Shown here: piece after piece, positions 29,421 through 54,398 of the stretch
Position numbering within the stretch: the stretch's first letter is position 1
Layout of the letters: every line of letters begins with the position of its first letter
Virus record (IMG/VR): IMGVR_UViG_3300027819_000006
DNA: 64,000 nt
DNA from: a virus
Taxonomy: Duplodnaviria; Caudoviricetes
Direction: 5' to 3' (one strand)
Program-made: the position numbers and the translations under genes
The notes under the pieces: generated by a model
Seen by the model: the letters and a program-made list of their open reading frames with translations, nothing else
Database searches by the model: none
Told to the model about the DNA's origin: nothing

Positions 29421-29506
29421 ACAAACCAATTAGTGACGTCCTAATAGGTAGACCTACAGGCTAATTGGTTTGTAATATATTTATATTTAAGCCTATTAGA
29501 ACGTCA
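29421..29506 (-). promoter_or_regulatory. Structured two-stem leader, copy 1
   Basis: Inverted repeats 29421-29433/29461-29473 and 29434-29448/29492-29506, interleaved; U.G wobble on the minus strand. Confidence 0.8.
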
Positions 29507-29536
29507 TATATAAATATACTATGAGAAATAAAAGAA

Positions 29537-29590
29537 TTACAAATTATGAGAATCTACTAAAAGTATTGTTCTTTTTGAATTGTTGTCCAT
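29537..29590 (-). pseudogene. Truncated duplicate N-terminus of the 5'-3' exonuclease
   Basis: AAGGAG RBS then MDNNSKRTILLVDSHNL*; compare MKTVLLIDSMNL at 28550. Confidence 0.75.
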
Positions 29591-29649
29591 TAAACTCCTT
29601 GTATTTATAAATATCACTTTCAAAGCTTATAAGACATGAAGAACAAACT

Positions 29650-29689
29650 AAAATGGTAACCATTTTTAATTAAAATAGTTACTATTTTA
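29650..29689. repeat. Two tandem imperfect 17-19 bp palindromes
   Basis: AAAATGGTAACCATTTT and TAAAATAGTTACTATTTTA. Confidence 0.6.
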
Positions 29690-29757
29690 AAACAAATTGT
29701 CTATTCATTTATGACTGAGGATACTCATTTAAAAAATCAACATTATCAGATATTTCA

Positions 29758-30315
29758 TCAACTATAAATTTGATCACATGAATGTCCTCTAAATGTTTGA
29801 GCTTCTTTTTCATACCATTCTTCTGGATGAGTCAAAAAAGAATTTGGTATAGAAAATCTTCTATCTACTCCATATTCTTTATCTTCATACAGATAATCAA
29901 ATGCTTCTTTATAAGACAATCCTTCAGACAGCTTCTGATTAAAATCTTCTCTCAATGGAATACTAGAATTTGATTCACCCTTTACAGGTCTTGAAGCTAA
30001 TTTATCAGAATTTCCATCAATTTTTTCACCACATTCATAGCAATAAATACATTTATCTATTGTATTGATGAAAAAACTGACATTCAATTTGCTATATAGA
30101 TGATTAGCTATATCACTTGTTGCAGTGTACAAATATTTTCTACTTGTCCTTTTTATTGCTAGTGCTTGAAAATAGCATGATTCATAATGCCATTTTCTGT
30201 GAAGATCTCTAAGTTGGTAATCTTGTAGTTTCATAGTTTTAACAATTTCATAAAAATACCCATGCTCATCATAAATGGCATGCCAGAAGTGAATACTGAA
30301 AAGAATGTGATACAA
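29758..30315 (-). CDS. hypothetical protein
   Basis: 185-aa ORF with CxxCxxC. Confidence 0.5.
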   Translation of the reverse strand: MYHILFSIHFWHAIYDEHGYFYEIVKTMKLQDYQLRDLHRKWHYESCYFQALAIKRTSRKYLYTATSDIANHLYSKLNVSFFINTIDKCIYCYECGEKIDGNSDKLASRPVKGESNSSIPLREDFNQKLSEGLSYKEAFDYLYEDKEYGVDRRFSIPNSFLTHPEEWYEKEAQTFRGHSCDQIYS

Positions 30316-31082
30316 ATTATGGCTGAGCTTGTATCGCCAAAACGCATCTTGTTCAGTAATTAAATTAGCTTTCTATCTCTCAAACAATTTAGAAATAAAA
30401 TAATCGCTGGGCCAAATGCTGCATACACAAAAGAATAAATTAATCCCCATTGATGGCTCATGCTATAGAAAAATAACAGAGCATATAGAATAGCATTGAG
30501 AGCACAATAATATCCTGAGTACATTATTCAGCCCTTCATATCAAATGTAGACTCATACATAGTTCTCATCTTAGCATCTATGAAGCTCTGAGATGACCAT
30601 AGAACAAACTTAAGTCTTTGTTTATATAATCTATTTAACTTAGCTTTATAGTTGATCAGATGTACATCTTTGATCATCTAGTTAACTATGGTTAACATAG
30701 CTACAACTTCATTGTTATGCAAGAATACTTTGTAGTCAGAAATTGTTACATTTTCCATGTGCACATTGTTGTGATTCTTTACTCCAAAATCTAAAATTCC
30801 ATTCATTCTCTGTGTTAACTCTTCGTAGTTTTTACATTTCAGTTGCAGATAAAAAGTGCTGTTCATTTATTCTCCTTTCTGAGTGTTAATTTAGATCAAC
30901 TCCTACAACATCGACAGGATAACGTGCAATATTCACTACAACCTTCTTCCGAGGATTCAGTTTAGAAGACTTTGTCATCTGAACAATCTTCATGCCGTTG
31001 ACAATTGTTTGTGAGAAATGGATATTTGTAGCATTCATTTTTTTAAGTCTCCTATGTGTTAAGTTGTTGCATTCAATGGTTA

Positions 31083-31111
31083 AATATAAACAATCTATGT
31101 TCAAAAGTAAA
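31083..31111 (-). promoter_or_regulatory. sigma70-like early promoter
   Basis: TTTACT-17-TATATT with the conserved spacer ATAGATTGTT. Confidence 0.75.
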
Positions 31112-31117
31112 CAGTTT

Positions 31118-31567
31118 TTAATTCCACAGTGCTCTAAAATATATTGCAAAATTCATTAATCCTTCATTTATTATTTTTTCATTAGCTTCGAACAACTCTT
31201 GTGAAAAATGTCCATCTACATAGTCTATATCAAAATGATCATCTTCTCTTTTAATCAGTTCAAATGCTTCTATCATAGATTGCAATTTATCTTGCCATTC
31301 AGCAGAATATTTTACATCTCTTTCTTTTGATTCTTCTGTAGTCAGCTTTTGAGTGTCGTTATAATCAGAGAAAAAACATCCAGGAATTGTAGCATCTCCA
31401 TATTTCTCTTTAAATAATTTCAGCTTTGGAAGTACAAACTCTACTATAGCATGATCTAAATTCCAAATCTGAATATCTGAATAGCCTCTGAATGTTTTTT
31501 GTAGAAACATTTTGATTCTAAATTTATAGTCTGATATAGTATAAAGTATTCTATGTAAATGTATCAT
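31118..31567 (-). CDS. hypothetical phage protein
   Basis: 149-aa ORF (WNLDHAI...LPKL...GL..F..YF..LW). Confidence 0.6.
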   Translation of the reverse strand: MIHLHRILYTISDYKFRIKMFLQKTFRGYSDIQIWNLDHAIVEFVLPKLKLFKEKYGDATIPGCFFSDYNDTQKLTTEESKERDVKYSAEWQDKLQSMIEAFELIKREDDHFDIDYVDGHFSQELFEANEKIINEGLMNFAIYFRALWN

Positions 31568-31818
31568 ATTAGATCCCTCTGATGTAGGTCTTCAATTTCT
31601 TCTCTTGTCAATCGTTTCAACACACATTTCGGAATGCCTTCTTTGCAGTTTCCATTCATATAGAAAGAAGCTTCTTTTAGGTAAGCTTTCTTGTCTATTA
31701 ATGGTAAGTCATCAAAACCTGTATATTCTGCTAACTCATTAATGCTCCACAGTCTATCTTCTCTTTTATCTTCTTCAAACATTATCTGAGCAAATCTTTG
31801 TACAGAAAGTTGAGACAT
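31564..31818 (-). CDS. hypothetical protein
   Basis: 84-aa ORF with a GGAG RBS. Confidence 0.55.
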   Translation of the reverse strand: MSQLSVQRFAQIMFEEDKREDRLWSINELAEYTGFDDLPLIDKKAYLKEASFYMNGNCKEGIPKCVLKRLTREEIEDLHQRDLI

Positions 31819-31833
31819 TCTGAAAATCTCCTT

Positions 31834-32283
31834 CTATGAAAGAGGTTCATATACTACTATTCTACATTCACAATCTGAAAGTGTTAACTCGATTTGTTCT
31901 TTAACTGTTTTCCATTCTAAATTGCCTAATCCACAGCCTAATGCTGGAATTGCTATTGATTCAATATTTAACCTGCTCATTTCAGCTTTCATAGCAGTCA
32001 GTCCTTGAGTAATATATTCCATTTTAGAATCATCTTTAAAATGATCTTTTGTAGGAAAATTGACAATGTAGACAAAATCTCTATCTAGATTATGAGTAAC
32101 TAGAACTCTACCAGTAGTCAGCTCATCTTCTACACAAGCATCATAATATTCTTTGAAATTATCTGGATATCTGATCCTAAATTGTTTTGCCAGACCTGCT
32201 CCCATTACACCTACACAATTTACAGTATTCACAATAGCTTGAGTTCCAGCATCAAAAATGTTACCTTTAGTGTAAGTTATCAT
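31834..32283 (-). CDS. Macro domain protein (DarG-N-like ADP-ribosylhydrolase)
   Basis: GNIF, IVNTVNCVGVMGAGLA, IVNFPTK, SIAIPALGCGLG. Confidence 0.88.
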   Translation of the reverse strand: MITYTKGNIFDAGTQAIVNTVNCVGVMGAGLAKQFRIRYPDNFKEYYDACVEDELTTGRVLVTHNLDRDFVYIVNFPTKDHFKDDSKMEYITQGLTAMKAEMSRLNIESIAIPALGCGLGNLEWKTVKEQIELTLSDCECRIVVYEPLS

Positions 32284-32391
32284 GTTTTGCTCCTTATTTT
32301 GTCATAGACATCTGTGAAGCATGAAAATGTACAGTATTCACAAAAATTAATGATTTAATAAACAATAAAAAATTTTAACATAGCAAAAACT

Positions 32392-32703
32392 CTATATTCG
32401 TGTTAATATCAGATAGTTTAGTTGCTGATTTGAAATTACTTGATTTGCTAATTTTCTATTTATGACAACATCAGATTTGCCATATCTATTTTTCAGAACT
32501 CTGACTCCTCTGTTCAAGAACACAAAAACTACATCATTCATTTCTAAATCTATGTTCTGTTTTATAGCAGCTAAGTTTTGTGCAATGTCTTGTTGATTGT
32601 TAGCTCTGTTAACTCTTCGAATTAAATCATTTTCATGAATACAGAGTATTTTCATTTCACAACCTTTCTGCAGTAATCGTACATTGCTATTGCTGAGGCA
32701 CAT
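32392..32703 (-). CDS. hypothetical protein
   Basis: ORF; true start is probably the internal MKIL. Confidence 0.5.
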   Translation of the reverse strand: MCLSNSNVRLLQKGCEMKILCIHENDLIRRVNRANNQQDIAQNLAAIKQNIDLEMNDVVFVFLNRGVRVLKNRYGKSDVVINRKLANQVISNQQLNYLILTRI

Positions 32704-33179
32704 CCCACGTTAAGAGATCTAATAGACCCCTGCATTCTGATAAAAATTATATCATTACACATGTCTAAAATATCTTTTGAAATTCCCAGCTGTTCTTCTC
32801 CAAATAACATTAGAACATGTTTATCTGCTTGCCATTCATAAGTCTCTATGGACTTTGAATTCTCTACATTATCAATCCCAACTGTATAGAATTGTTTGAA
32901 AAATGTTTCTAAATCTGTATCTATTGGCAAGTGTACAATCTTTTCATAGTGATTAGTTCCTACACAACCTCTTCTGTCAAATCTTTTGTTGCCATAGATA
33001 AATATTTGTTTAGCTAGAAATGCGTTGCAGTTACGAACGATAGATCCTAAATTGAAATCGTGGTGAATATTTACACAGAATACAGAAAAATTGTGTCTCT
33101 TTGCATCAAGGTCTGAAATTATTTCAGAATGAAGCCAATAATGATAGTAGTTGCAGATATTTCTGGTTTCTTTTTGCAT
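32652..33179 (-). CDS. SpoU/TrmH family RNA 2'-O-methyltransferase
   Basis: NLGSIVR, LFGEEQLGI, SLNVGCASAIAMY (SPOUT motifs). Confidence 0.85.
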   Translation of the reverse strand: MQKETRNICNYYHYWLHSEIISDLDAKRHNFSVFCVNIHHDFNLGSIVRNCNAFLAKQIFIYGNKRFDRRGCVGTNHYEKIVHLPIDTDLETFFKQFYTVGIDNVENSKSIETYEWQADKHVLMLFGEEQLGISKDILDMCNDIIFIRMQGSIRSLNVGCASAIAMYDYCRKVVK

Positions 33180-33200
33180 TATAAAACCCTTTAGATAAAT

Positions 33201-33506
33201 TTAATCTATATCCTCTTCTGATTCACACATTTCAATGAGCCCAGTGAAAATATCTATCAACTTGTTTGAAAAGTTGTTGATTGCAAAACCAATATCTGTT
33301 GCAACTTTACTTGAGAACTGTTCTACTATCTGTAGCTGCTCAACCTGATGTCTTTTTGTTATTTGGCAAATACGCTTGAGAAAAACTGCTTTCTGTTCAT
33401 CGGTAATAGATTCAATGACAAAATCATCTTCTGGTTCATTGATCATATAGCTCATGATATCAACTCTTTCTCTTAAAAGAAACTGCAGGATAGACCTTGA
33501 CATCAA
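33201..33506 (-). CDS. hypothetical protein
   Basis: 101-aa ORF. Confidence 0.5.
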   Translation of the reverse strand: MMSRSILQFLLRERVDIMSYMINEPEDDFVIESITDEQKAVFLKRICQITKRHQVEQLQIVEQFSSKVATDIGFAINNFSNKLIDIFTGLIEMCESEEDID

Positions 33507-33831
33507 AAACTTCAGAATTCACTGTATCTGAAACATCTAAATTTTTCTTGAGTTCCTTTGAAATTGAATGAGAAACTTTTGTTTCGACATACTTGCTATA
33601 CATATCACCAAAGAAAGATTTTAAAACATTCTCATCATTACTTTTGAAACTGAAAGACTTCCTCCAGAGAATTTCACAAATTGCAGTATCACCATCAAAA
33701 AGAGCTTTTGTACTATTAGATTTTTCAATCATACAAGATCTAATTTGTCCAAGTCTAAATGACAATTCTGCAATTTGATCTTGAATGTCAATAGCTTCAT
33801 CGATCAATCTTGCAATAGAGTCTGAATTCAT
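33460..33831 (-). CDS. hypothetical protein
   Basis: 123-aa ORF with a GGAG RBS. Confidence 0.55.
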   Translation of the reverse strand: MNSDSIARLIDEAIDIQDQIAELSFRLGQIRSCMIEKSNSTKALFDGDTAICEILWRKSFSFKSNDENVLKSFFGDMYSKYVETKVSHSISKELKKNLDVSDTVNSEVFDVKVYPAVSFKRKS

Positions 33832-33842
33832 TTTATAACTCC

Positions 33843-34043
33843 TTAACGAGAGTCATCCATCATTGCAAAAGCTTGCCCATTTTCCACAATCCACATTCCA
33901 TACTTGTCTTTTGGCAGTTTACGATTCAGATATTCAACCTTGATAGTAGCAGATTTTTCAGAAAGTTCGCTATAAAGAGTTCTGAGATATTGATAATTTC
34001 CATTCTTCATTTGCAAGTAGAGATTGACATCGAAGAGTCTCAT
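33843..34043 (-). CDS. hypothetical protein
   Basis: 66-aa ORF. Confidence 0.45.
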   Translation of the reverse strand: MRLFDVNLYLQMKNGNYQYLRTLYSELSEKSATIKVEYLNRKLPKDKYGMWIVENGQAFAMMDDSR

Positions 34044-34054
34044 TTTTTCTTATC

Positions 34055-34282
34055 CTATGAGATGAGATTCATTACTACATCTTCTCTAAAGCTATAAACA
34101 TTTTTTGGACATATTGGGCTATCATCAGAAGTTATAGCTTTTATAATACCCGTCTTAAAAAGATTTGTAGATAGTACTGTATATTCAACTCCATCAACAT
34201 AAAACTTTTTTCCTAACGGAGAACCCTTACCATTAAAGCGCTTTTCAGTAAGATTTTTAAAATATTCCTCTAGATTGTTCAT
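34055..34282 (-). CDS. hypothetical protein
   Basis: 75-aa ORF directly after a promoter and a GGAG RBS. Confidence 0.55.
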   Translation of the reverse strand: MNNLEEYFKNLTEKRFNGKGSPLGKKFYVDGVEYTVLSTNLFKTGIIKAITSDDSPICPKNVYSFREDVVMNLIS

Positions 34283-34324
34283 TTGAATTCTCCCGTTTAA
34301 GTTATAACCATTTTGTAATGTTTA

Positions 34325-34353
34325 AATATAAACAATCTATGAACGAATGTAAA
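34325..34353 (-). promoter_or_regulatory. sigma70-like early promoter
   Basis: TTTACA-17-TATATT. Confidence 0.75.
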
Positions 34354-34424
34354 CAAAAAAGATTAAACTCCGACAAAATAATTCATCAGAGCTTTTAATT
34401 TTCTACCTTATTCACAGATAAAAT

Positions 34425-34862
34425 CTATCTCAAAACAATTTCTCTGATCTTTTGCTTAACTTCTTCTCTATTAAGATTTATATCATGCTCCCAAAATCTT
34501 AGCAATTGAAACCCTCTCTTTCTAGCTAACCAATTTTTGACAACATCATTTCTTTTATTCTTCAATTGCATATAATTCTTATTTTCATTCATCTCATCAG
34601 AACCATGCCAATAATCTCCATCAACTTCTATAAGGATGTTTTTGCTCAGAATTCTAAAGTCATATACTTTCCAGCTATTGATGAAATTTATTGGATACTC
34701 AATTTCAAATTCTATTCCAAGCTCTGTTAAAATGCAAGACATCTCTTCTTCTGGAGCAGTTCTTTTTCTATTCTTTCTTTGTGGTTCTCTAAAAGTAACT
34801 CTGCCTTCTTTTCTCTTGTTTTTCAGAAATTTTACAAATGTCTTCTTAAAGCCTCTCTTCAA
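34425..34862 (-). CDS. Stand-alone Vsr/DUF559 endonuclease-domain protein
   Basis: TAPE, VYDF, IEVDGDYWH, LLRFWE. Confidence 0.8.
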   Translation of the reverse strand: MKRGFKKTFVKFLKNKRKEGRVTFREPQRKNRKRTAPEEEMSCILTELGIEFEIEYPINFINSWKVYDFRILSKNILIEVDGDYWHGSDEMNENKNYMQLKNKRNDVVKNWLARKRGFQLLRFWEHDINLNREEVKQKIREIVLR

Positions 34863-34871
34863 GCATAATCT

Positions 34872-35300: not shown

Positions 35301-35318
35301 TATATAGCTTTCTATTTG

Positions 35319-36636: not shown

Positions 36637-37477
36637 ATAATTCTCCAAAGTTTATTAACATCACTTTCCCATATTCTAACTAATTTATAACCATATTTTT
36701 TAGCTAATTCATTTTTTAATTGATCTATTTCTATTTTTATTTTCTGAAATTCGTTTACTGGTCCATTTGGATAATATTCAGGATTACAATGATGATAATT
36801 GCCGTCTACTTCTACTAGTATATTAAAATCTTGTAAATAAAAATCATAATATCTGTTTTCGATCTTGAATTGATTTTCATACCTAATATTACTTTCTATA
36901 TTTTTTCTACTGATTCTTCTACTTTTGAAGTTCTTCTATGCCAATCTTTAGCTACTTTTTCTTTCCACATTTTTTCAGCTATTTCTATACCAAAACTTTT
37001 AGCCCAAAAATCTTTGACTGTTTTGCCATACATCACATTCTTTGAACCTTTTTTATCATCTGACATTTTTAGCAATCTATCATCTGTATTCTTATTTAAC
37101 CCGTCATTCCAGTTTTTACCACCATTTTCATAAAATAAAATCATGCCTGCAGAAGTTTTATTTCCATGTATTTTTACTCTCTCATCTGTTTCTTTTGTAA
37201 GACCTTTATTCCAAGCACCCGATTTGACAAAACCAATTTTTAAAATGCTATTACGACATCCATAACATCTATTATTAGGTCCTTTCACTTCTTTATTACA
37301 GTCATTTTCTATACATTTATATTTATCTAATTTCAGAATTTCAAACCAATATTTTTTAGAATTTACCTTATGTTTTGCTCCAACATGACCAAATAAAGCA
37401 TTATAGCTTTTGAAAACTTTCTTGCAAATAAAACATGATGGTAGTGGATTATTACTTTTATATTCACTTATATTCAA
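36633..37477 (-). CDS. Zn-finger/NUMOD3 + Vsr endonuclease (frameshift near 36900)
   Basis: WNKGLTKET and WNDGLNKNT repeats; the shifted frame continues YYDFYLQD..LVEVDGNYHH...LVRIWE...LWRII*. Confidence 0.8.
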
Positions 37478-37497
37478 TCTATTTCTCCTATAATAAA

Positions 37498-37583
37498 AGC
37501 CAAGCAATTGTAATCTACAATAGACTATGAATCTAGTAGTTGCTTGGCTCAAACTATTGGTTAAGTTTATTGTAGATTACAAT
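37498..37583 (-). promoter_or_regulatory. Structured two-stem leader, copy 2
   Basis: Inverted repeats 37498-37507/37540-37549 and 37507-37522/37568-37583. Confidence 0.75.
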
Positions 37584-37619
37584 ATAAATATATTTATAAG
37601 AGAAATAAATGCAAATCAC

Positions 37620-37769
37620 TCACTGCTGGATAGGGCCATACGAAATTCCCATGAGATCGAAATTTCCAGAAATGCAGCTGTAACACTCGGGTGGCATCTT
37701 ACTGTTTTCAATAAATCCAGTGAGACAGACTACCTTTTCTAATAGAGATGAATCTTTAGTTAATTTCAA
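37620..37769 (-). pseudogene. Truncated duplicate N-terminus of the lysozyme-like gene
   Basis: MKLTKDSSLLEKVVCLTGFIENSKMPPECYSCISGNFDLMGISYGPIQQ*; 29 of 48 residues identical to the start of 35902..36636. Confidence 0.9.
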
Positions 37770-37815
37770 ATTAACTCTCCATATTAATTGTTCAATATAA
37801 ATATATAATGCTAAT

Positions 37816-38115: not shown

Positions 38116-38132
38116 TTCTATACTCCTCTTAT

Positions 38133-39871: not shown

Positions 39872-39880
39872 CAGATATTT

Positions 39881-40052: not shown

Positions 40053-41237
40053 CTATTTGCAGCTGCTTTCTTTGTCAGAGGGATTATAAACTCCTCTGTG
40101 CAGAATGTTTAAAGCAGCATTATAGTCTGCATCTAAACTTAGACCGCATTCCAGACATAAAAATTTATCTAATTTCCTATTTTCTTTATGTTTGAATCCA
40201 CATGAAGAACATTCCTGACTAGTATAGAAAGAAGAAACTTTCTTCAACTCTATACCCTGTTCTTCACACATCGACTGTAATTTTGAAATAGTTTTTGTAT
40301 AAGACCAATATTGCATTTTATTATTCATTTTCTTAGAATATTTTGATTTGTGTTTTACATTTTTCAAATCTTCTAAAACAACAATGGAGTTATTATAAAA
40401 ATCAATTTTATTGCATATTTCATTGATCTTATTATCTTTAAAAATAAGATATTGCTTATAATTTATAGACCCTCGTTTCATATTTGATAATTTAGTATAC
40501 AATTGTTTCATTTCTACACCATAGACATCATTGTTTGAAGAAACTAGAAGCTTATCATACCCGATGTCAAAAGCAACAGCAGCTTGCTGTTGTTTCAGCA
40601 TTATTTCTTTTTCATAAATAAATGTAATATAAAAATTACCATGTATTTTTCTTAGCAATATCGTATTTTTTCTATTCCAATTTTTGTATTTTAAAGATTG
40701 TTTATGTTGTTTGATAGGTAGATTAATTTTAAAAGCTCTTCTTTTGCTTTTTAAATATGGTAATTTTATGCCTATAAATTCATCAAAATGAGATGAAGAT
40801 TTATCATAACTTATAATTCTATAATCCATATTTATGCATATGTTTTTTATATTGATTCGTATTCTTGAAAATATATGATTTAATCGAAGCTCTGAAAATC
40901 TTTTACTCAGAAATTTTAACTGTCTATTATTTTTAGCGAAATATTTATAGCATTTTTTATATCTACTATATCTTTTATTTCTAGCATATCTAATATTAGA
41001 GCGTATTATTTCAGAAGCTTGTTTATGTATTATCTGTTTCCATCTTGAGTGTATTATTATGTTTGAGCTAACAGATTCAAAAAATTTAGCACTATTTAAG
41101 TCTGGTTTTTGCTTCAATATTTGTTCTATATAAAATATAAGATCTGTTTTATAGTCTTCAAAAACTTGCTCTAGCTGCTCTATCTTATTCTTATTAGAAA
41201 ATTTTAAAATGTGAGTGCTGCTTCTTTTTATAATCAA
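40053..41237 (-). CDS. tnpB: TnpB / Cas12f-like RNA-guided nuclease
   Basis: RuvC-I AFDIG, RuvC-II VLEDL, Zn finger CSSC..CLEC, RuvC-III DADYNAALNI; no tnpA nearby. Confidence 0.9.
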   Translation of the reverse strand: MIIKRSSTHILKFSNKNKIEQLEQVFEDYKTDLIFYIEQILKQKPDLNSAKFFESVSSNIIIHSRWKQIIHKQASEIIRSNIRYARNKRYSRYKKCYKYFAKNNRQLKFLSKRFSELRLNHIFSRIRINIKNICINMDYRIISYDKSSSHFDEFIGIKLPYLKSKRRAFKINLPIKQHKQSLKYKNWNRKNTILLRKIHGNFYITFIYEKEIMLKQQQAAVAFDIGYDKLLVSSNNDVYGVEMKQLYTKLSNMKRGSINYKQYLIFKDNKINEICNKIDFYNNSIVVLEDLKNVKHKSKYSKKMNNKMQYWSYTKTISKLQSMCEEQGIELKKVSSFYTSQECSSCGFKHKENRKLDKFLCLECGLSLDADYNAALNILHRGVYNPSDKESSCK

Positions 41238-41257
41238 GTATATATCTCAAATAAAAA

Positions 41258-41334
41258 TGCCAAGTATTGGATCTTAAAAGACTATATGTCTAAAGATACT
41301 TGGCAGTTGATGTCAAGCCTTTTAAGATCCAATA
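41258..41334 (-). promoter_or_regulatory. Structured two-stem leader, copy 3 (in front of tnpB)
   Basis: Inverted repeats 41258-41267/41296-41305 and 41265-41280/41319-41334; inner AGAC-N5-GTCT hairpin. Confidence 0.8.
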
Positions 41335-41363
41335 ATAAATATGAAATATAGAATAATGCAATA

Positions 41364-43948: not shown

Positions 43949-43961
43949 TTCTATCTCCCTT

Positions 43962-44252
43962 TTAATTTCCAGATGACAGCATCAAAGTTTCTACAGAACC
44001 TAAAATTCTACTAATCATTCTTTTGTGATTTTCACAAGTTCTGATTTTATGTCTTATAAGAGATAGTTCTCCTCTTTGCTTATTTTCTAATGCTTCTGAC
44101 ATTTCATTGTGCAGAACAGAAATGTTCAAAGACTCTCCATCGTACTTCTTCCTTAATTGTAGCAGAATTTGCTCATAAGTAATATTATCTTCAGTATGAT
44201 TCATATGTAGTAGTGTCTTATAAAAGCTGTGCATTAGTGATATCTGAGCCAT
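43962..44252 (-). CDS. hypothetical protein
   Basis: 96-aa ORF. Confidence 0.45.
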   Translation of the reverse strand: MAQISLMHSFYKTLLHMNHTEDNITYEQILLQLRKKYDGESLNISVLHNEMSEALENKQRGELSLIRHKIRTCENHKRMISRILGSVETLMLSSGN

Positions 44253-45333
44253 CTTTTGTCTCAGAAAATATGATCTTGTTCAATCCAGTCTCTACTTTTG
44301 TGATTCTTTCTAAATTCTCTAAAAATCTCTGTGGTGTTCTGTAAGTCTTCAATTCTCTGTTAAATACAAATCTATACGGATTCAGTTCTATTTCTCTTGG
44401 TATCTGCCTTAGCACATCCATTTTATTGAATATTACATGAGTGCCTCCAATAGATTTAACAGCATGAATAATCTTGTCTAGATTCATTACACCAATTTTT
44501 CTTGGTCTACCAGTAGTTTCACCAACTTCTTGACCGATGTCTCTGATTAGAGATTCCATTCCTTTTTTAAAGATATATTCAAATGGTTGTTCTTTGAAGC
44601 CAGAATAAGTAGAATATACTTTACAAACTGCATATACATTTCTCAATAAGCTAACTGGCATGTTAAAAGTAGTAAAAAAATGTCCGGGATGCAAATGTGA
44701 GCTAGTGCAATATGGATAGGAGTCAGAATCTATAGAAATTTGCATCCCTTGACTCCCTTCTAGCAAACAGTTACCAGAAAACTTAGTACATTTATTGTGG
44801 TAGAAATCATCTTGTTCCATGTATACATCTTTTATTGTAAATCTGTCATTATACTGTTCTGATTTACCTGATTCAAATTCTTGATCTTTTATATCTTTTA
44901 ATCTAATTCCTGTTCTATTATATTTGTCGACATAGCATGGACCAATGCCTTGTCTAGTAGTTCCTATTTTTATATCTTTTCCATCATCCTCCAAATTCTT
45001 ATCAGTTATAATATGACACTTTGAAGATATAAACATTCTATCTTTTAGATCAAATATATTATAAAATTTATCATATTCATCAAAAAATTTCTTCAAATTT
45101 ATACAGCAGCCGGGTCCAATGATCACGTTTGTGCTCTTATTATATATTCCCGAAGATAGAAGATGGGTTACATATTTCTGCCCATCTGCATATACAGAAT
45201 GTCCAGCATTGCTCCCACCTGAATATCGGATACAATTTTTATAGTTTTCTGTATCGATGAGTCTTTTAGAAATCTTTCCCTTCGATTCGTCGCCTTTGTC
45301 TATTCCTATAACTGCATCTACAAATTTTATCAT
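44218..45333 (-). CDS. purA: Adenylosuccinate synthetase
   Basis: GDESKGK, GGSNAGH, GTTRQGIGPCY, EGSQG, TTGRPR, NKMDVL. Confidence 0.9.
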   Translation of the reverse strand: MIKFVDAVIGIDKGDESKGKISKRLIDTENYKNCIRYSGGSNAGHSVYADGQKYVTHLLSSGIYNKSTNVIIGPGCCINLKKFFDEYDKFYNIFDLKDRMFISSKCHIITDKNLEDDGKDIKIGTTRQGIGPCYVDKYNRTGIRLKDIKDQEFESGKSEQYNDRFTIKDVYMEQDDFYHNKCTKFSGNCLLEGSQGMQISIDSDSYPYCTSSHLHPGHFFTTFNMPVSLLRNVYAVCKVYSTYSGFKEQPFEYIFKKGMESLIRDIGQEVGETTGRPRKIGVMNLDKIIHAVKSIGGTHVIFNKMDVLRQIPREIELNPYRFVFNRELKTYRTPQRFLENLERITKVETGLNKIIFSETKDGSDITNAQLL

Positions 45334-46320
45334 AAAATCTTCAATTCTTTTAATTTATTTTTATCCCATAGTTCGATTGGAATTTTGATACACTCCTGTA
45401 ATAGTGCAGGATATTTTTCACTACCATCAAACCATCCTTTAACCTCTATTATTTTTAATATTTCCTTCTATATCATAAACTATAAAATCTGGTAAATAAC
45501 TTCTATCTCTTATTATACATATTCTAAATTGTTCATATTTCCAAATAATGTTATTATTGTCGAAATATTTAGCGACTTTTGCTTCCCAAGTAGATTTAAA
45601 ACATATACCATTATAATATATTTTCTTTCCATGAGCTCTTGGTTTGCCAAATCTGGGATTTTTAATCCCTTTGGCCACTCCCTTTGATTTTCTTGTATTG
45701 GAAACACTATTTGCTAATTTTATCAGCCTAACATCTGTTTCTTTAGTTAGCCCTTTTTGCCAAGATGTCCAGCCATTAGCTACTAATTCTTTTTTTCTAT
45801 CAGACATTCTTTTTTTAGTTTCTTCAGAATGATTTCTACCATAAAAAGAAGCATTCTCGCCTGTACAGGAACCTGTCAATATTTTAGTCATGCATCCTTT
45901 TTCATGCCATTCTCTAAATTTTTCATCTGTATCTTTAGTCTTTCCTTTTTGCCAATTCACTATATTTCCTAAAGCATACCCCTCTTTTATAACTTTCGAC
46001 ATATTGCTTCTATATTCTTCAGAAAATATTCGATGAGAATTTCTACAACCATAACACATATTGCACTCTGCTTTAACTTCATTAAGACATCCTTGAACAG
46101 CGCAATAATATGTTAAAGAAGCTACACATTCAGAGCATCTATCTCCTCTATATCCAGTTACTTTGCTTAATATATCTCCACAAGTAGTGCATCTTTTTCT
46201 GTTTTTATTATATTCTGCTGCTTCACATTCTTTGCAAAATTTACTTTTTCTTCTACCATCATAAATATTGTTGCATATATCAAAATTTGAACATTTCGTT
46301 ACTCTCATCTTCTTCTCCAA
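45330..46320 (-). CDS. Cys-rich/NUMOD3 + PD-(D/E)XK endonuclease (frameshift near 45445)
   Basis: WQKGLTKET repeats; FKSTWE...YLPDF, then a shifted frame IIEVKGWF. Confidence 0.78.
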
Positions 46321-46321
46321 C

Positions 46322-46415
46322 TAGTAAAGCCGATTAGTATCATCCTGATAGGGTATCCTACTGGCTAATCGGCTTTACTACAAAGTATATTTATGATTAA
46401 CCTATCAGAATGATA
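46322..46415 (-). promoter_or_regulatory. Structured two-stem leader, copy 4
   Basis: Inverted repeats 46322-46337/46365-46380 and 46338-46352/46401-46415; covaries with copy 1. Confidence 0.85.
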
Positions 46416-46449
46416 ATATAAATATACTCTTGGAGAAAAATAGTACATT

Positions 46450-46508
46450 TTAAGGTTGTAACTTTGCCTCATCGCCTGCCTCCCCTCATAGACGCAATCT
46501 ACATACAT
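46450..46508 (-). pseudogene. Truncated duplicate N-terminus of purA
   Basis: MYVDCVYEG, then after a 1-nt slip AGDEAKLQP*; compare MIKFVDAVIGIDKGDESKGK. Confidence 0.65.
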
Positions 46509-46512
46509 GCTT

Positions 46513-46818: not shown

Positions 46819-47000
46819 TATTCCTCCGCTACTGATATTTCAAAAATTTCATAGCCAAAGTTCTTAGCATAGAAATGCTCTTTCATTTCTTCATCTGCAT
46901 CTTCATAGCTATCATATAGTTTAACTTCATCATTCTCTTCTTCTATGGGTATTATTTTAGTGCCCTTCTGGTTGAACATCATCACGAAGAACATAGTTTT

Positions 47001-48713: not shown

Positions 48714-49501
48714 TAAATAGCTGCTACAGACACATCGTCATAGTTGACAATTCCTTCTTTTTCATAATCTTTCATCAGTTTATACATTCGTCTTTTGACA
48801 AATTCACCAGTGTGATTCTTGAATGCTATAACATCTTTTACTACTCTGTCTATTGGAATATTTTCACCAGTGCTTTTGTTGAAGAAAGAAGATAATCCAT
48901 CAGAAGCAATGCAGACATATTTCAGATTTTTATATTGATGATCTCTAATCGTAAAAGTATAATCAAACGCATCGTTAAAATATTTGATCTCTTCTTCTAT
49001 TTTGTTATTGAAATATAGTTTTTCACTTTTTATAGAAACACTAGTTAACGAAGCTATATACTGATTTTGTCTATCTATATCGAAATAGTAACTTAAATAG
49101 AATGGAGCATTGTTAGAATATTTCAGTTCATAATGATATGTTTCATCATTTCCGTAACAAAATATTAGATTACCATCGCCAAAAATTTTTACATCTACAA
49201 GATCATCATTTACCTTACAAATTATTAGCGTTGCATCTAAACTTTCTTGCTCTAATCCTAATCTATCAATTGTTTCTTTACAATGTTCAAATACAGATAT
49301 ATCAAAATCATCATCTCTAACATGTCTTAGTACTTCTTTTTTAAAATGTTGTAACAACACTCTTGCTCCAATATCTGTATTTGGAGAAGATGAACAACCA
49401 TCTCCAATCATTACAAAAGGAAATGGTTTCATTACAGATAGAGCATAATCTTGACAGATGTGATGTTGTCTAGTTCCTGTGAAGAAACAGTCAGAGTTCA
49501 T
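48701..49501 (-). CDS. PP2C-like phosphatase
   Basis: ICQDYA, GDGCSS, LDATL, FGDG, IASDG, DDVSVA. Confidence 0.85.
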   Translation of the reverse strand: MNSDCFFTGTRQHHICQDYALSVMKPFPFVMIGDGCSSSPNTDIGARVLLQHFKKEVLRHVRDDDFDISVFEHCKETIDRLGLEQESLDATLIICKVNDDLVDVKIFGDGNLIFCYGNDETYHYELKYSNNAPFYLSYYFDIDRQNQYIASLTSVSIKSEKLYFNNKIEEEIKYFNDAFDYTFTIRDHQYKNLKYVCIASDGLSSFFNKSTGENIPIDRVVKDVIAFKNHTGEFVKRRMYKLMKDYEKEGIVNYDDVSVAAIYCGE

Positions 49502-49503
49502 AG

Positions 49504-49851
49504 TTAATATGTTTCTTTATAGAGATAGCTCATAACATCAAGTAAAGAATGAATGACACCTCTTAATCTGTCAATTTCATTTTCTAATTCTCTATCAGAT
49601 CCATACATCATATCTTGAAGATTGTTTCTATCTCTTTCTACTGTCTCAATAATATCTACTAACTCTTCTTTCAATATATTATCTAACTGTGTTCTGTCTA
49701 TATTGATTCTTAGATGCTCTGTTTTATGCTTATCGACAATATTTTTGAAAGTTCTTTTTCTATTTCTTTTTTCATAGTCTTTTTCATTTTCTCTTGGAGC
49801 AGTAGCAGCTAATAGAGCATCTATTTCATCTTGACTTAGAATATCTGGCAT
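49504..49851 (-). CDS. Hypothetical protein with a FliM/FliY-like N-terminal peptide
   Basis: Starts MPDILSQDEIDALL, followed by a coiled coil. Confidence 0.6.
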   Translation of the reverse strand: MPDILSQDEIDALLAATAPRENEKDYEKRNRKRTFKNIVDKHKTEHLRINIDRTQLDNILKEELVDIIETVERDRNNLQDMMYGSDRELENEIDRLRGVIHSLLDVMSYLYKETY

Positions 49852-49860
49852 TCAATGCTC

Positions 49861-51034
49861 CTAAAATGTTAATTGCTGTGATTTGTTGTTTATAATACAA
49901 TTTAAATCTTCTTTAAATAAAATATGATATATTTTAGATTCTTTTTCATATAAACGCAAAAAATTTGCTATTTTTACTTTGCTGTTTTCATATGTATAAA
50001 TTGATTTAACTTCTTCTATTCTTATCAAATTATCATTTTCGTCATATATGAAAAAATCGGGAGTATATGTAGTTCCATCTAGTTTATAAGTTATTTCTTC
50101 ATATTTTGATATAGAATCTAAAAATTGAGCTCTTTCTAGTTCATAAGATGATTTTAAATATGTTTTGTTATATATTTTGTCCATCTATCAGTATTAGTGT
50201 ATTTATCATGCCACATTAATAAAGCTGTTTTCAAACCATATTTTTCAATCCAAACATCGAAAACAGATTTACCATACATTCCATTATTTTTACCATAAGT
50301 TGGGCAAGTTTCGCCTGTCAGACCTAATCTGTACGGAATAATTTCTCCTGAAGCATATTTTATTTTTAATGCGTCAGAAATATTTTTTTACATTCATCTG
50401 ATAGAGGAATTCCAAAACTGTGTGATAATTCTCCAGTAAGACCTTTATTCCACTGAATTCTGCCATTAGCAAATTGATCTTTTAACGTTATAGATACATT
50501 TTCTGACTGTTTTCTAACTCCGTCGCTAGTTTCTTTAGTGAGACCAGTATTCCACTGAATTCTTTCATTGGCAAACTGATATTTTAAAGTTTCTGAAATC
50601 TGCTGCTTCTCTTCTTCAGTGTGTAATCTTCCAAAATTATGGCATAGTTCTCCAGTCAATCCATAATTCCATGCATTTTCTCCTCTAGTTTTTTCATTTC
50701 TGTCTTCCCATCTCCCACTTCCTTCTTCTTCTCCATATTTTTCTATTATTACATTTTTTATTCCTCTACAAAAGACACTATGTTCTGACATATATTCAGA
50801 TAATTTGTAGTTATTACACTTCCGACATAGTTCTGCACTTCTGTTCTTTTTGTTTCCACATTTGCAAAATTTTAAAGATAGATAATACGATAAATTAGTG
50901 TTATTTTTTATTTCGATACTGAGATCTTCTATTTTATTAATGTTTTTATCTATTTTATAGTCACATTCTTTACAAACATTAGTAATATTGTTGAGCGATA
51001 ATTTGTTTGTGTTGCATATGCTGCATAATTTCAA
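49861..51034 (-). pseudogene. NUMOD3 + PD-(D/E)XK endonuclease with several frameshifts
   Basis: WNxGLT(G/K)E repeats in 50366..51034; LKSSYE...YTPDF...IEEVK in 49861..50184; shifted frames link the two. Confidence 0.75.
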
Positions 51035-51046
51035 GTTATTTCTCCA

Positions 51047-51128
51047 AATAATAAAGCCTATAGTAATTGGTACAGAAATAATATTGCTATTAAGTCTTCA
51101 CTATAGGCTTTATTATTTCTGTACCAAT
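51047..51128 (-). promoter_or_regulatory. Structured two-stem leader, copy 5
   Basis: Inverted repeats 51047-51064/51100-51117 and 51066-51080/51114-51128. Confidence 0.75.
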
Positions 51129-51146
51129 ATAAATATATTAAGAAAA

Positions 51147-51908
51147 TTAAAATACAAGCTGTTGCGATTTATTAGGATTTCCCAAGCTTGTACTTGTACT
51201 TGAGATACTGCGAGAAATGAATGCACACAATTTAGCCAATTTACCAGGACTAGCCTCACCAACATCAATGTACTGAGTCAAATTAGCTTCATCTTTAAAC
51301 TTATTCAGCACGTAACTACAAATTCCATCTTGAGTGTTAATTCCTACTAGAACTGTGATCATTGACTCAAGCTTCTCTTCTTTTGTCACTTTTGCAACCT
51401 GATCTCTAATCATAGATGGAGTAACTCTTGAAGCATTATCTACACCATCAGTGATAATAAACATAATAGCATTTACAGTATAGTCTTGATCAGATAGCAA
51501 CTGTCCATATTTTACAGTGGAAGCTACTGCATCAAATGTGGCATCATATAGAGAAGTCATTCCTCCGCAGTTGAAAGGAAGATAATCTTTATCTACATCA
51601 ATTTCATTTAAATTCTTGAATCCATGAATCTCCTTTACTCCAATTCCAGAATTGAATTGGAGAGCTCGTACAAGAATATTTTCAGACTTTGGTGCTTTCT
51701 TGCAAGAATTGACTGCACTTTTAAGTGCATCTAAAAGATTGTTTGCAAATGGTTCTACTGAACCTGTAATATCTGTTACGATTGATACAAGAGTATATTC
51801 TGTTTCTGTTAGAGCATCAGGTCTGACAGCAGAGAATGTAAATGATCCATCTGCAGCTGTGAAATTCTGCATGCTACCATCTGCATTTTGATTAAGGAAC
51901 TTAGGCAT
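51147..51908 (-). CDS. von Willebrand factor A domain protein (TerY-like)
   Basis: DITGSV (MIDAS-like), GGMTSLYDA, FIITDG. Confidence 0.85.
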   Translation of the reverse strand: MPKFLNQNADGSMQNFTAADGSFTFSAVRPDALTETEYTLVSIVTDITGSVEPFANNLLDALKSAVNSCKKAPKSENILVRALQFNSGIGVKEIHGFKNLNEIDVDKDYLPFNCGGMTSLYDATFDAVASTVKYGQLLSDQDYTVNAIMFIITDGVDNASRVTPSMIRDQVAKVTKEEKLESMITVLVGINTQDGICSYVLNKFKDEANLTQYIDVGEASPGKLAKLCAFISRSISSTSTSLGNPNKSQQLVF

Positions 51909-52284
51909 TTTGTTCTTCTCCTTTTTGTTTATCTGCTAGTTCAATAGCTTTTAAATAGCGGTTAATAGCTTTATCTGAGTCTAATAAATATGAAGTATGT
52001 GAATCTTTGTCATATTGAATAGACACCGCTTCTACTTCATATTTATTAACTTTTACTGCTCCATCATTCGATGAATAATCATTTAAATTCTTATTCAAGA
52101 CTGTCATAGCATACAAATTCAAAGGATCTAGTCTACCATTTTTATTTGTAAATGTTCCAACTAGTAGTTTTTCATGTTTAGGATCAAGATTTTGTGGAAG
52201 TCTGTCATCCCTAACATCTTCTAGAAACTTGATCACCTTATTCCAATTCTTGTGTAAATTCTTTACTTTCATTTTTAGCTCCAA
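51901..52284 (-). CDS. hypothetical protein (paralog of next ORF)
   Basis: EKLLVGT..NKN...DP..L and YLL...KAI.R.LK shared with 52275..52607. Confidence 0.6.
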   Translation of the reverse strand: MELKMKVKNLHKNWNKVIKFLEDVRDDRLPQNLDPKHEKLLVGTFTNKNGRLDPLNLYAMTVLNKNLNDYSSNDGAVKVNKYEVEAVSIQYDKDSHTSYLLDSDKAINRYLKAIELADKQKGEEQNA

Positions 52285-52607
52285 TCATTTTTAAAAGAAT
52301 CTATTACTTTTAACATTCTCTTGATAGCTTTTTCTCTTGGTAATAGATAGGGCATCTTTGTCATACCATCATAATCATGGAACATACTTGAAAAATCAAA
52401 TTCAAAATCTACTATATGAAATGATTCATTTCTAATGTCTTCATAACTATATCTCATCTTTTCATGAAGAAATAGACCAATTGGATCTACTTTATTGTTT
52501 TTATTGCACCATGTCCCTACAAGAAGTTTTTCTGGCATAGAATCATCATTCTGAACTTTTACAAGAAAATTTCTGAATTGCTTTAGAGTTACTCTTTTAG
52601 ATTTCAT
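52275..52607 (-). CDS. hypothetical protein (paralog of previous ORF)
   Basis: Same shared motifs. Confidence 0.6.
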   Translation of the reverse strand: MKSKRVTLKQFRNFLVKVQNDDSMPEKLLVGTWCNKNNKVDPIGLFLHEKMRYSYEDIRNESFHIVDFEFDFSSMFHDYDGMTKMPYLLPREKAIKRMLKVIDSFKNDWS

Positions 52608-52619
52608 TTTTGTATCTTT

Positions 52620-53411
52620 CTATTTTAGAAATTTATCATGAGTAGTTAAATTAAGTCCTCTTTTTACTAGTGAATCTAAAACTTTATTTGTATTATCCTC
52701 AAATCCAGGAATAATAGAACAACAATCTTTCACTAGATGTATTTTTTGAATATTCTCTTCTCCAAAATTGGCACAAATGTCGATCAAACTATACAATACG
52801 CAATGTGATAAAGCTTCGCCATAGAACCCAATTACATCGGCTCTCTGTAAAGTCTCAATTAATCTAACATTTAATTGAGTTGAGGGATCGTTTGAGTCAG
52901 GGACATCTGCAACCAACACACCAAAATGTTCCGTCGTGTAGTTGCTCCCCTTGGTAACGTAATCTACCATAGCAACTCCTTTTTCCCATTCAAGAAGCTG
53001 TTCTGCTACTGGAGAGATAACTGTAGCTCCGACGGACCCTATGAGGCAATGCGGTGGCCAAATACAAAGTTTATATCTGCCATTCTTTGCCAATGTCTCA
53101 GTATATGTTAGCATCTTTTGTGTTTCAGCAGGATTTGAAGGTTTCCATACTCCATTTTTTACATCTTCATAAGAAATAATAGTAAATGGATTCGGATGAT
53201 TTCCTTTTGAGTCTACCCAGAAAATAGGATGTGCTACGTCGTAGAAATGATGAGTATCTAGCGTTACATGGTAGTCATCTACTCTGTCTCGAATTCTTTC
53301 CATCATTTTAACCATTCTCAAAACATCTTGATCAGCACCAGGAACAAATAGCTCTCCACTTGGTGAACAAAATGATACCTGTGTGTCGATCATTAAACAT
53401 TCTATTTTCAT
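52620..53411 (-). CDS. pncA: Nicotinamidase (isochorismatase family)
   Basis: IDTQVSF, TLDTH, WPPHC, TKG, GEALSHCV. Confidence 0.85.
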   Translation of the reverse strand: MKIECLMIDTQVSFCSPSGELFVPGADQDVLRMVKMMERIRDRVDDYHVTLDTHHFYDVAHPIFWVDSKGNHPNPFTIISYEDVKNGVWKPSNPAETQKMLTYTETLAKNGRYKLCIWPPHCLIGSVGATVISPVAEQLLEWEKGVAMVDYVTKGSNYTTEHFGVLVADVPDSNDPSTQLNVRLIETLQRADVIGFYGEALSHCVLYSLIDICANFGEENIQKIHLVKDCCSIIPGFEDNTNKVLDSLVKRGLNLTTHDKFLK

Positions 53412-54295
53412 ATTAGTCTCCATATTAATTTAACTTCATCTTCCCAGACTCTAACTATTCTATCTATAACCATTGTTTTTAGCAACATTATTTTTATTAT
53501 GATCACTGGCAATTCTCTCTTTCCAGTTAAATGGTTTTTATATCCCTCTCTACAATGCCAATAATTTCCATCTACTTCTATAAGTATATTATAATCAATT
53601 AATAAAAAATCATAAACACTATACCTATTAGTGATTTCATCTAATATAAAGAATTGTTTTTTAAAATTTATGTTACACTCTATAAGCAGCTGCTCCATTT
53701 CTAATTCACATTTAGTAGTTTGATATTTTCGATTGCATAAAGATTTAGCAGCAGATAAAGATCTTTTAGCTTTTTCTTCTTCACCCATTACTCTACCTTT
53801 AGTTGTAATACCTCCATCTTGATAAAATTTTTTCAAACCCTCTGATATTTTATTTTTTGTTTCATCAGAACTAATTCTTTCAAAATTCCAGTGTAATTCA
53901 CCAGTTAACCCTTTATTAAATTGTGTTTCAGATATCTTATTGTTTCTTTCTATCCACATCTGCTCAGCTATTTCTATTCCATGTTTTAGAATCCAAATAT
54001 CTAAAACAGATTTTTCAAAAGTTCCATTTCTAGATCCAGAACTTGCACACTTTCTACATCTTACTCCTGCACTCTTTACTTGATTTTCACAATTTTCTTC
54101 TATACAATAATATATACGATGTTTAGGACATTTAAATTCTCCTTTTAAAATTGATTTTTGATATACTCTAGAAGTGCAGTTTTCTTCTGAACAATACGTG
54201 CTATTTACTGCTGAATGATATCCACAAGTGTTTTGGCCTTTTTCAACAGCACGTACACTAGCTTCATTATTGCATTTATCAACGACACATTTCAC
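53408..54295 (-). CDS. Cys-rich/NUMOD3 + Vsr endonuclease
   Basis: GTG start after GGAG; TKCE, YDFLLID, IEVDGNYWH, RVWE, LIWRLI*; compensating indels near 53460-53520. Confidence 0.8.
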   Translation of the reverse strand: MKCVVDKCNNEASVRAVEKGQNTCGYHSAVNSTYCSEENCTSRVYQKSILKGEFKCPKHRIYYCIEENCENQVKSAGVRCRKCASSGSRNGTFEKSVLDIWILKHGIEIAEQMWIERNNKISETQFNKGLTGELHWNFERISSDETKNKISEGLKKFYQDGGITTKGRVMGEEEKAKRSLSAAKSLCNRKYQTTKCELEMEQLLIECNINFKKQFFILDEITNRYSVYDFLLIDYNILIEVDGNYWHCREGYKNHLTGKRELPVIIIKIMLLKTMVIDRIVRVWEDEVKLIWRLI

Positions 54296-54317
54296 TTTTC
54301 TTCTCCATAAATAAATA

Positions 54318-54398
54318 TGCCAAGCTGTGTACTCCAAAATAGACTGTTAAGTCTAAAGGCAGCTTGGCAATAGATTTATGAATCTATTTTGGAGTACA
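54318..54398 (-). promoter_or_regulatory. Structured two-stem leader, copy 6
   Basis: Inverted repeats 54318-54327/54360-54369 and 54328-54343/54383-54398; inner TAGAC-N6-GTCTA hairpin. Confidence 0.82.

Follow-up and report, generated by a model that had tools for sequence, protein, structure and literature searches.

Introduction

Free-standing homing nucleases and TnpB need to be expressed without harm to the genes around them, and the T4 hairpin is, to our knowledge, the only well-studied solution to the safe expression of a homing nuclease. In I-TevI, I-TevII, I-TevIII, segB and mobE of Aeh1, a hairpin with an embedded late or middle promoter sequesters the ribosome-binding site (RBS) (PMC2988022). 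Here we analyze two-stem 5' leaders that precede mobile nuclease genes in a 64,000-nucleotide stretch of DNA (the window; IMG/VR record IMGVR_UViG_3300027819_000006) from an AT-rich (~29% GC), uncultivated groundwater jumbo phage represented by a contig of 271,887 bp. A first-pass annotation of the window had described six such leaders, in which the arms of two long stems, S1 and S2, follow each other in the order S1a, S2a, S1b, S2b.

Other systems invite comparison. IS10 and IS50 are protected from external promoters by foldback inhibition, and IS200 combines a left-end terminator with a stem-loop that occludes the RBS. Stem-loops at the 5' terminus stabilize mRNA in the E. coli ompA leader and in B. 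subtilis/SP82, and the omega-RNA of TnpB lies at the 3' end of tnpB. T4-like phages also carry PeSL cassettes, in which a conserved terminator stem-loop is followed by an early sigma70-type promoter and for which a role in recombination has been proposed (PMC2839356, PMC4122927).

We find at least ten leaders of one topology and with unrelated stem sequences, all in this one phage genome. As a tentative reading, which we rate as plausible but somewhat short of probable, the leader would consist of two layers, the inner one a bistable gate.

Results

Leader anatomy

On the minus strand, the six window copies (c1 to c6) share one order of parts: a TTTCTC-like pyrimidine-rich patch, 3-7 nt, the promoter-like motif TATATTTATAT, S1a, a spacer (L1), S2a, a mini-hairpin segment (L2) that pairs with the first S1b bases, S1b, S2b, a U-rich tail, GGAG and the start codon, with GAGA in place of GGAG in the TnpB copies. 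S1 measures 15-19 bp with at most one G.U pair; S2 measures 10-16 bp, and its extended form in copy 5 reaches 21 bp. The distance from the motif to S1a is 0-2 nt in every copy, in agreement with the earlier placing of S1a shortly after a TATATT-type box. S1b and S2b are separated by -3 to +1 nt, and 13-22 nt lie between the end of S2b and the start codon. The exact 11-mer TATATTTATAT occurs nine times, against 0.76 expected. All six sites were recovered on the minus strand at the annotated positions, copy 2 beginning at 37497 rather than 37498.

How exceptional is this arrangement? An exhaustive scan of both strands of the 64 kb for interleaved stem pairs returned S1 of at least 15 bp with S2 of at least 10 bp only at these loci, all other matches being AT-rich noise of 9-14 bp; copy 5 is absent from the scan output solely owing to the overlap of S1a with S2a. 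Minimum free energy z-scores range from -3.3 to -6.0 (200 dinucleotide shuffles), though each fold uses just one of the two stems. Of the 8 nt that follow S2b, 62% are T (50/80; background 31%, P ~9e-9), and other 5' untranslated regions of the phage are A-rich. In c1 and c4 this U-rich tail contains no U run.

A look-up of a TnpB paralogue and walking along contigs of the same genome located four further leaders, at L005:6330-6430, L005:9906-9980, L005:16720-16808 and L017:2362-2437. Alignment of the ten yields three sequence types: type I (c1, c4, c7), type II (c2, c3, c6, c8) and type III (c5, c10 and, loosely, c9). Six of the ten leader-linked genes begin with TTG or GTG. The initial description is borne out: a recurrent mRNA-strand element, divergent in sequence and conserved in structure, that mobile nuclease genes carry between their RBS and a promoter-like box.

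S1 opens with TG and closes with CA in seven of nine copies, and several S1a arms begin with ATG or TTG and a mini-open reading frame (ORF) of 1-7 codons (ATG ACG TTC TAA in c1, for example). Both features are probably a by-product of the ...TAT(A)TG end of the motif.

Mutual exclusivity of S1 and S2

Could both stems form at once, as in the pseudoknot that had been considered for these leaders? A pseudoknot would need L1 to span 25-33 bp. L1 is -2 nt in c5, 9-11 nt in c3, c6, c8, c9 and c10, and 9-20 nt across the copies other than c5; moreover, the arms share nucleotides in c2, c3 and c5. These loop lengths and overlapping arms rule out an H-type pseudoknot with both stems formed together, and S1 and S2 are therefore alternatives, as had been suspected from the abutting arms. 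On the modelled folds, the pair is bistable and not a pseudoknot. When folding is left unconstrained outside the two stems, only ~1-7 kcal/mol separate the S1 state from the S2 state; the forced-fold S1 value for c7 is meaningless because of an internal A.G mismatch. In c1, c8 and c10 the modelled ensemble flips when the 5' end is shifted by 3 nt; in c6 the flip is partial. L2 forms the mini hairpin with the start of S1b, which in the S2 state lengthens S2 to a rod of 20-25 bp, closed by a small apical loop.

Covariation

The stems have been rewritten by paired changes. Between c1 and c4 there are four compensated pairs in S1 and two in S2, which substantiates the covariation first noticed in these two copies. 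c3 and c8, the leaders of TnpB paralogues that are 67% identical, differ by six compensated pairs in S1 and have an identical S2; other type II pairs show 3-5 compensated changes in S1 and three in S2, and c5 and c9 show six and three, respectively. One-sided changes number 0-2 per comparison, and no pair is broken. In type II the S2 core, GCCAAG/CTTGGC, is invariant, and the three pairs outside it vary (TAT/ATA, CTG/CAG, CAA/TTG). c5 and c10 have homologous S1 stems and build S2 from different loop segments: the S2a of c10 is the segment AAGACTTA..., an unpaired loop in c5, and the S2a of c5 is taken from another segment. Rebuilding S2 in this way indicates selection on topology.

A T.G wobble occupies the same S1 position in c1 and c4, again as first described; c7 has an A.G mismatch there. 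In the core stems of c1, c3, c4 and c6, every non-Watson-Crick pair is a G.U when read on the mRNA strand; the few A.C pairs are confined to stem extensions. This placement modestly favors selection at the level of RNA.

The outer stem

A third stem, C:C*, lies outside the element originally annotated and joins sequence upstream of the promoter motif (C) to the Shine-Dalgarno (SD)/start region (C*). Pairing between the 45 nt ending at S1a and the segment from S2b to the start codon beats shuffled sequences in seven of nine copies tested (p <= 0.04), and in three of the seven none of 300 shuffles scored better. Cognate C:C* pairs average -13.8 kcal/mol, compared with -10.1 for non-cognate combinations. 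c10, which stood outside the shuffle tests, has a 10-11-nt C/C* complement. The two TnpB leaders differ in C and, together with it, in C* (TATATTTCA/TGAGATATA versus ATCTCACAA/TTGTGAGAT), and this covariation shows that C is not merely a promoter element; its spacing to the motif varies from 3 to 7 nt. A fourth stem, of S2b or the tail with the start codon or early ORF, did no better than shuffles in any copy.

What does C:C* do to the ribosome site? In partition-function models, the SD-to-start region is unpaired with a probability of 0.5-0.75 on RNA that begins at S1a and of 0.2-0.4 when 70 nt of upstream sequence are included, and complementing C restores SD accessibility on read-through RNA. 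Modelled SD/start accessibility is equal with S1 forced or S2 forced. We therefore rejected S1 versus S2 as a direct translational switch, and the idea that these two stems silence translation is not supported: in the models, the masking is due to C:C*. The motif TATATTTATAT lies between C and C* in all copies, a position that suggests a promoter and a likely start site. Since C lies upstream of, or overlaps, the promoter, the RBS would be masked only on transcripts that read in from upstream. As a model, this masking by an outer layer is well supported.

Compact C-promoter-C* units, which lack S1/S2 and have a spacer of 13-16 nt, stand before other nuclease genes of this phage, at 273-944 in the window and at L010:5398-6285. 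In the former, the leader at 945..1026 (-) of the NUMOD3/DUF559 nuclease gene 273-944 reads TTCTATTCTCTC (C), then TATATTTATTAT (promoter), then GGAGAATAGAA (C*). The existence of such units shows that S1/S2 is an optional insert, placed exactly between the predicted start site and the SD sequence.

Two unrelated metagenomic phages carry the same TATATTTA(T/A)AT motif before NUMOD3/endonuclease genes, at L007:19052-19136 (-) and L002:9930-10001 (+). At both sites a simple hairpin with arms on either side of the motif covers the SD sequence. One source is a groundwater phage of 217 kb whose portal and terminase genes are T4-like; the other is a contig of 53 kb.

In type I leaders only (c1, c4, c7), L1 contains a segment, P*, that is complementary to the promoter region over 11-14 bp and has covarying flanks. 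On read-through RNA, P:P* shuts S1a into a 15-nt loop, and the predicted fold combines C:C*, P:P* and S2. P* was significant only in type I and was rejected as a general feature.

Genes behind the leaders and genome context

The leaders had been assigned to nuclease genes. Nuclease domains are found for copy 2 (HNH), copy 3 (TnpB), copy 4 (NUMOD3 with an endonuclease I/resolvase-like C-terminus) and copy 6 (HNH/homing-endonuclease PHROGs); for copies 1 and 5 the support is limited to DNA-binding modules (NUMOD3 or zinc finger) and to a weak homology with the other leader genes. Taken together, the genes comprise TnpB, HNH-type proteins and a web of 24-35%-identical Zn-finger/NUMOD3 proteins with differing nuclease ends. 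Type II leaders precede two TnpB genes and two HNH genes, whose proteins are unrelated, which indicates that the leader is a module moving between cassettes.

The two type I copies of the window are copy 1 at 29406..29531 (-) and copy 4 at 46308..46442 (-). Copy 1, before the 221-aa Zn-finger/NUMOD3 gene 28739-29404, comprises C 29523-29531, promoter motif 29508-29518, S1a 29492-29506, P* (inside L1) ~29476-29488, S2a 29461-29473, S1b 29434-29448, S2b 29421-29433 and C*/RBS 29406-29414. Copy 4 precedes the 289-aa NUMOD3/endonuclease-I-like gene 45439-46308; its parts are C 46430-46442, promoter 46416-46426, S1a 46401-46415, P* in L1, S2a 46365-46380, S1b 46338-46352, S2b 46322-46337 and C*/RBS 46308-46320.

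Type II is represented by three copies. Copy 2, at 37478..37609 (-) before the 193-aa C2H2/HNH gene 36896-37477 (TTG start), runs through C 37594-37609, promoter 37582-37592, S1a 37568-37583, S2a 37540-37550, the mini hairpin, S1b 37507-37522, S2b 37497-37507 and C*/RBS 37478-37493. Copy 3, at 41241..41350 (-), stands before TnpB 40053-41237 (TTG start) and has a weak C 41342-41350, a promoter variant 41332-41343, S1a 41316-41334, S2a 41296-41305, S1b 41265-41283, S2b 41258-41267 (3 nt in common with S1b) and C* 41241-41249. Copy 6, at 54295..54427 (-) before the 295-aa HNH-like gene 53408-54295 (GTG start), contains C 54417-54427, promoter 54399-54409, S1a 54381-54398, S2a 54360-54369, S1b 54328-54345, S2b 54318-54327 and C*/RBS 54295-54305, with an ATG-TAG relic just upstream of C. 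The type III copy 5, at 51035..51137 (-), precedes the 222-aa NUMOD3-like gene 50366-51034 (TTG start) and consists of promoter 51127-51137, S1a 51111-51128, S2a 51100-51112 (overlapping S1a), S1b 51066-51083 and S2b 51052-51064.

The promoter motif also occurs alone, with neither C:C* nor S1/S2, before TnpB 59614-60882 and the DUF559 nuclease L010:2846-3397. In the former case the region 60871..60935 (-) holds the motif at 60911-60921 and, upstream of it, TTTTTCTC. A further motif at 37795-37805 precedes a short non-nuclease ORF with a 14-nt, stem-free leader (37769..37805, -).

TnpB-like genes number three in the window and at least four across the genome parts read. One of them, 56059-57312 (+), is the sole plus-strand gene of its part of the genome and has a sigma70-like TTGACA-N-TATAAT upstream; in L010:15313-16539 the call for this ORF is on the other strand. 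Upstream of three ordinary genes, at 58791-58870, 34283-34360 and 4942-5005, the minus strand holds another conserved block of ~40 nt that resembles a promoter. It has the form TTTAC(A/T)TT..CATAGATTGTTTATATTTAA and reads TTTACA-N17-TATATT (sigma70-type); this is probably the early promoter class of the phage.

Several cassette borders stand out. An SD sequence followed by an ATG-TAG start-stop relic lies directly upstream of two cassettes (window 54428-54445; L010:5330-5345), and in c1, c2 and c5 the stop codon of the upstream ORF is 0-10 nt ahead of C; the 5' border of the cassette seems to begin with a stop codon. A decayed cassette at L005:13400-13880 has a degenerate promoter, a single leftover hairpin (TAATAGAT...ATCTATTA) and a NUMOD3/endonuclease-I-like gene broken by stops. 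Public assemblies of the source samples break at sequence common to both TnpB leaders (41268-41342 versus L005:9906-9980). This common sequence (c3, c8) is S2 plus its loop, with at least 24 nt identical, and the contig ends reflect the repeat. No cassette-free variant was found among the contigs compared, only these assembly breaks.

Phage genes include a DnaB helicase, a PurZ-like adenylosuccinate synthetase and other replication genes. The PurZ-like protein (44218-45333) belongs to PHROG 1211, which suggests that 2-aminoadenine may replace adenine in the phage DNA. Close relatives did not emerge: there was no megablast match among GenBank phages and no close relative in IMG/VR or a set of 5.8 billion proteins, and DnaB is at best 55% identical to anything found. 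The nearest nuclease homologs, 31-35% identical, lack the leader, as does a 56%-identical TnpB in another phage. Searches with leader patterns gave no matches in IMG/VR and four in JGI metagenomes, all judged to be chance.

Discussion

How might the two layers work? The leader would be a modular cis-acting RNA element of homing-nuclease cassettes. In its outer layer, C:C* would hide the ribosome site on transcripts reading in from the upstream host gene, and the cassette's own transcripts, lacking C, would be translatable. The inner layer consists of two long, nearly isoenergetic and exclusive hairpins between the predicted transcription start and the RBS. S1 would form first because S1b is made before S2b; as a 5'-terminal stem on RNA from the cassette's own promoter it may protect the message and block the terminator-like S2. 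With S1a unavailable, S2 would form and transcription or expression be curtailed, and in type I the promoter RNA could pair with P* and so lock S1a in a closed loop. Our best guess is that S1 acts as a 5'-terminal stabilizer or as an antiterminator against S2. A gate function of the inner layer is possible, if a little less than probable, and S1 and S2 would then act as a switch. We think it rather unlikely that the pair is, more specifically, an origin-sensing RNA gate, portable among TnpB, HNH and endonuclease-I-like nucleases, in which only own-promoter RNA escapes the terminator-like hairpin and is stabilized.

A number of points weigh against the two-layer reading. The loop of S2 is 27-38 nt with modest GC content, a terminator consensus scan flagged nothing on the minus strand, and a terminator at this place would be polar on essential downstream genes (replication). 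Only in c1, and partly in c2, does modelled read-through RNA favor S2 at equilibrium where own-promoter RNA favors S1, and outside type I no general read-through-specific block of S1a could be demonstrated. C:C* is not significant in c3 and c5. We infer the transcription start, termination at S2 and the stabilizing or antiterminating action of S1; that start, termination and timing have this status also counts against the proposal. The five public runs containing phage sequence are all groundwater or sediment DNA, with no RNA run among them. All copies come from one genome, the covariation is among paralogs that may exchange sequence, and DNA-level correction of palindromes would also yield near-perfect long stems. 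At present the finding is known from a single phage genome, and its evidence and its reach are limited accordingly.

Are two exclusive stems needed at all? Either S1, or S2 with P:P*, could passively fold the ~100-nt spacer so that C meets C*, without any switching; the leader would then be a long T4-type foldback, with S1 incidentally stabilizing the 5' end. Consistent with such packing, all modelled RBS masking is due to C:C*, breaking S1a or S2a hardly alters it, and C:C* closes over either S1 or S2 in read-through folds. However, packing leaves unexplained why two exclusive stems are kept by compensated change, why S2 was rebuilt between c10 and c5, why S1b and S2b constantly abut and why a U-rich tail follows, and simple cassettes work with a 13-16 nt spacer that needs no packing. 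We consider this explanation unlikely.

The stems, of 15-19 bp and with no more than one non-Watson-Crick pair each, are perfect to an unusual degree, and their outer S1 ends read TG...CA in seven of nine copies; given that the cassettes are mobile DNA, hairpins or cruciforms might act at the DNA level, in fork stalling or in recombination at cassette borders, and be kept perfect by intrastrand templated repair. Yet polarity and register are fixed relative to promoter, SD sequence and start codon, the core mismatches of c1, c3, c4 and c6 read G.T in the sense direction and A.C on the complementary strand, and the wobble of c1 and c4 was kept while four other pairs changed. In addition, C:C* and P:P* make sense only in RNA, and no stem sequence matches the flanking target. 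A DNA-level element is, in our view, quite improbable.

RNase III processing has precedents in T7 and lambda N, and RNase III or another double-strand-specific enzyme could cut helices of 15-25 bp, separating the nuclease mRNA from the upstream message and thereby unmasking the RBS or making the mRNA more or less stable. Helices that are long and regular do lie at the operon junction, and the rod of S2 and mini hairpin reaches ~20-25 bp in c2, c4, c5 and c9, but a processing site offers no reason for two exclusive helices or for a U tail, and we regard it as very doubtful. A pseudoknot, true or partial, might bury the 5' end and resist exonucleases or load ribosomes; S1 and a portion of S2 would then stack along the unbroken S1b-S2b strand. 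The zero S1b-S2b gap would permit coaxial stacking, the predicted 5' end directly adjoins S1a and L2 (12-17 nt) could span S1; against these features stand an L1 too short for 25-33 bp (-2 in c5, 9-11 nt in five copies), the bases shared between arms in c2, c3 and c5, and helices of more than one turn, which cannot interlock without threading, so that such a fold is highly improbable. Least probable of all is a small RNA, whether scaffold or antitoxin-like, released at the U tract to restrain its own nuclease: the order of promoter, structured RNA, U-rich tract and toxic nuclease gene, with sequence varying by cassette, recalls type III toxin-antitoxin systems, but a type II leader with identical S2 and loop serves TnpB and unrelated HNH genes, paralogous nucleases lack a leader, and there are neither tandem repeats nor unpaired nucleotides conserved across types. 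The scaffold RNA entertained at first is weak for the same reasons, one leader type serving TnpB and HNH and nucleases of the same family occurring without a leader.

Other candidates were rejected. An IS200/IS605 end hairpin or TnpB omega-RNA does not apply, as the leader lies 5' of the gene and the same type precedes HNH genes; a second TnpB of the window and the 56%-identical TnpB of another phage do without it. Miniature inverted-repeat or REP-like elements were dismissed because the stems are unrelated between types, with 11-mers shared only at promoter and RBS. Stems as mimics of nuclease targets, or as matches to flanking genes, produced only chance 11-mers besides promoter and RBS.

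A single phage genome here provides at least ten natural replicates in which the stems are rewritten and the topology is kept, close to a ready-made mutate-and-rescue series. They also show that domestication has brought phage TnpB into the cassette format of the classical homing endonucleases. If the proposed gate does read transcript origin, it would constitute a compact, protein-independent insulator for synthetic operons and a new entry for RNA family databases.

How do the leaders relate to described RNA elements? A search of Rfam 15, including the HEARO/IscB omega-RNA, IS605-orfB motifs and self-cleaving ribozymes, gave no match at gathering score in the window or L005, and none at E <= 1 over 28500-55000; in this comparison the element is indeed unrecognized, as first supposed. 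The inner bistable pair has no counterpart in Rfam or in the literature searched. As in attenuators, two exclusive hairpins, similar in stability and with a U-rich tract behind the 3' hairpin, stand just before the gene, and S1 excludes the terminator-like S2. Unlike in attenuators, exclusivity is mostly topological, one arm lying in the loop of the other, with strands shared only in c5, c3 and c2, and the leaders contain no leader peptide, ligand pocket or tRNA-binding feature that we could find. S1 would resemble the 5'-terminal stabilizers in its place at the very 5' end of own-promoter transcripts (0-2 nt), but those are single hairpins with nothing equivalent to S2. With the PeSL cassettes, the leaders have in common that they are small, portable modules of promoter and stem-loop tied to variable, shuffled genes in large phages; here, however, the promoter precedes the stems and is a -10-only motif, and the stems are divergent in sequence and specific to nuclease genes.

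The outer stem is closer to known ground. Like insertion sequences, the cassette is a mobile element that shields a nuclease or transposase gene from outside transcription through an RNA foldback over the RBS, although the IS200 terminator lies upstream of the element promoter and the terminator-like S2 lies downstream, where it would need S1 as an escape. Like the T4-type hairpins, the leaders serve a mobile nuclease gene inside a host transcription unit, and the layout of C:C*, in which the SD sequence pairs with sequence upstream of the gene's own promoter, is exactly the same. SD sequestration on upstream transcripts is predicted in seven of the nine copies tested, c3 and c5 being the exceptions. 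Where T4 has one compact hairpin, the S1/S2 leaders place a 75-95-nt module between the arms, and compact versions stand before other nucleases of the phage. By analogy of function, the outer stem thus belongs with the foldback elements of T4 and IS10.

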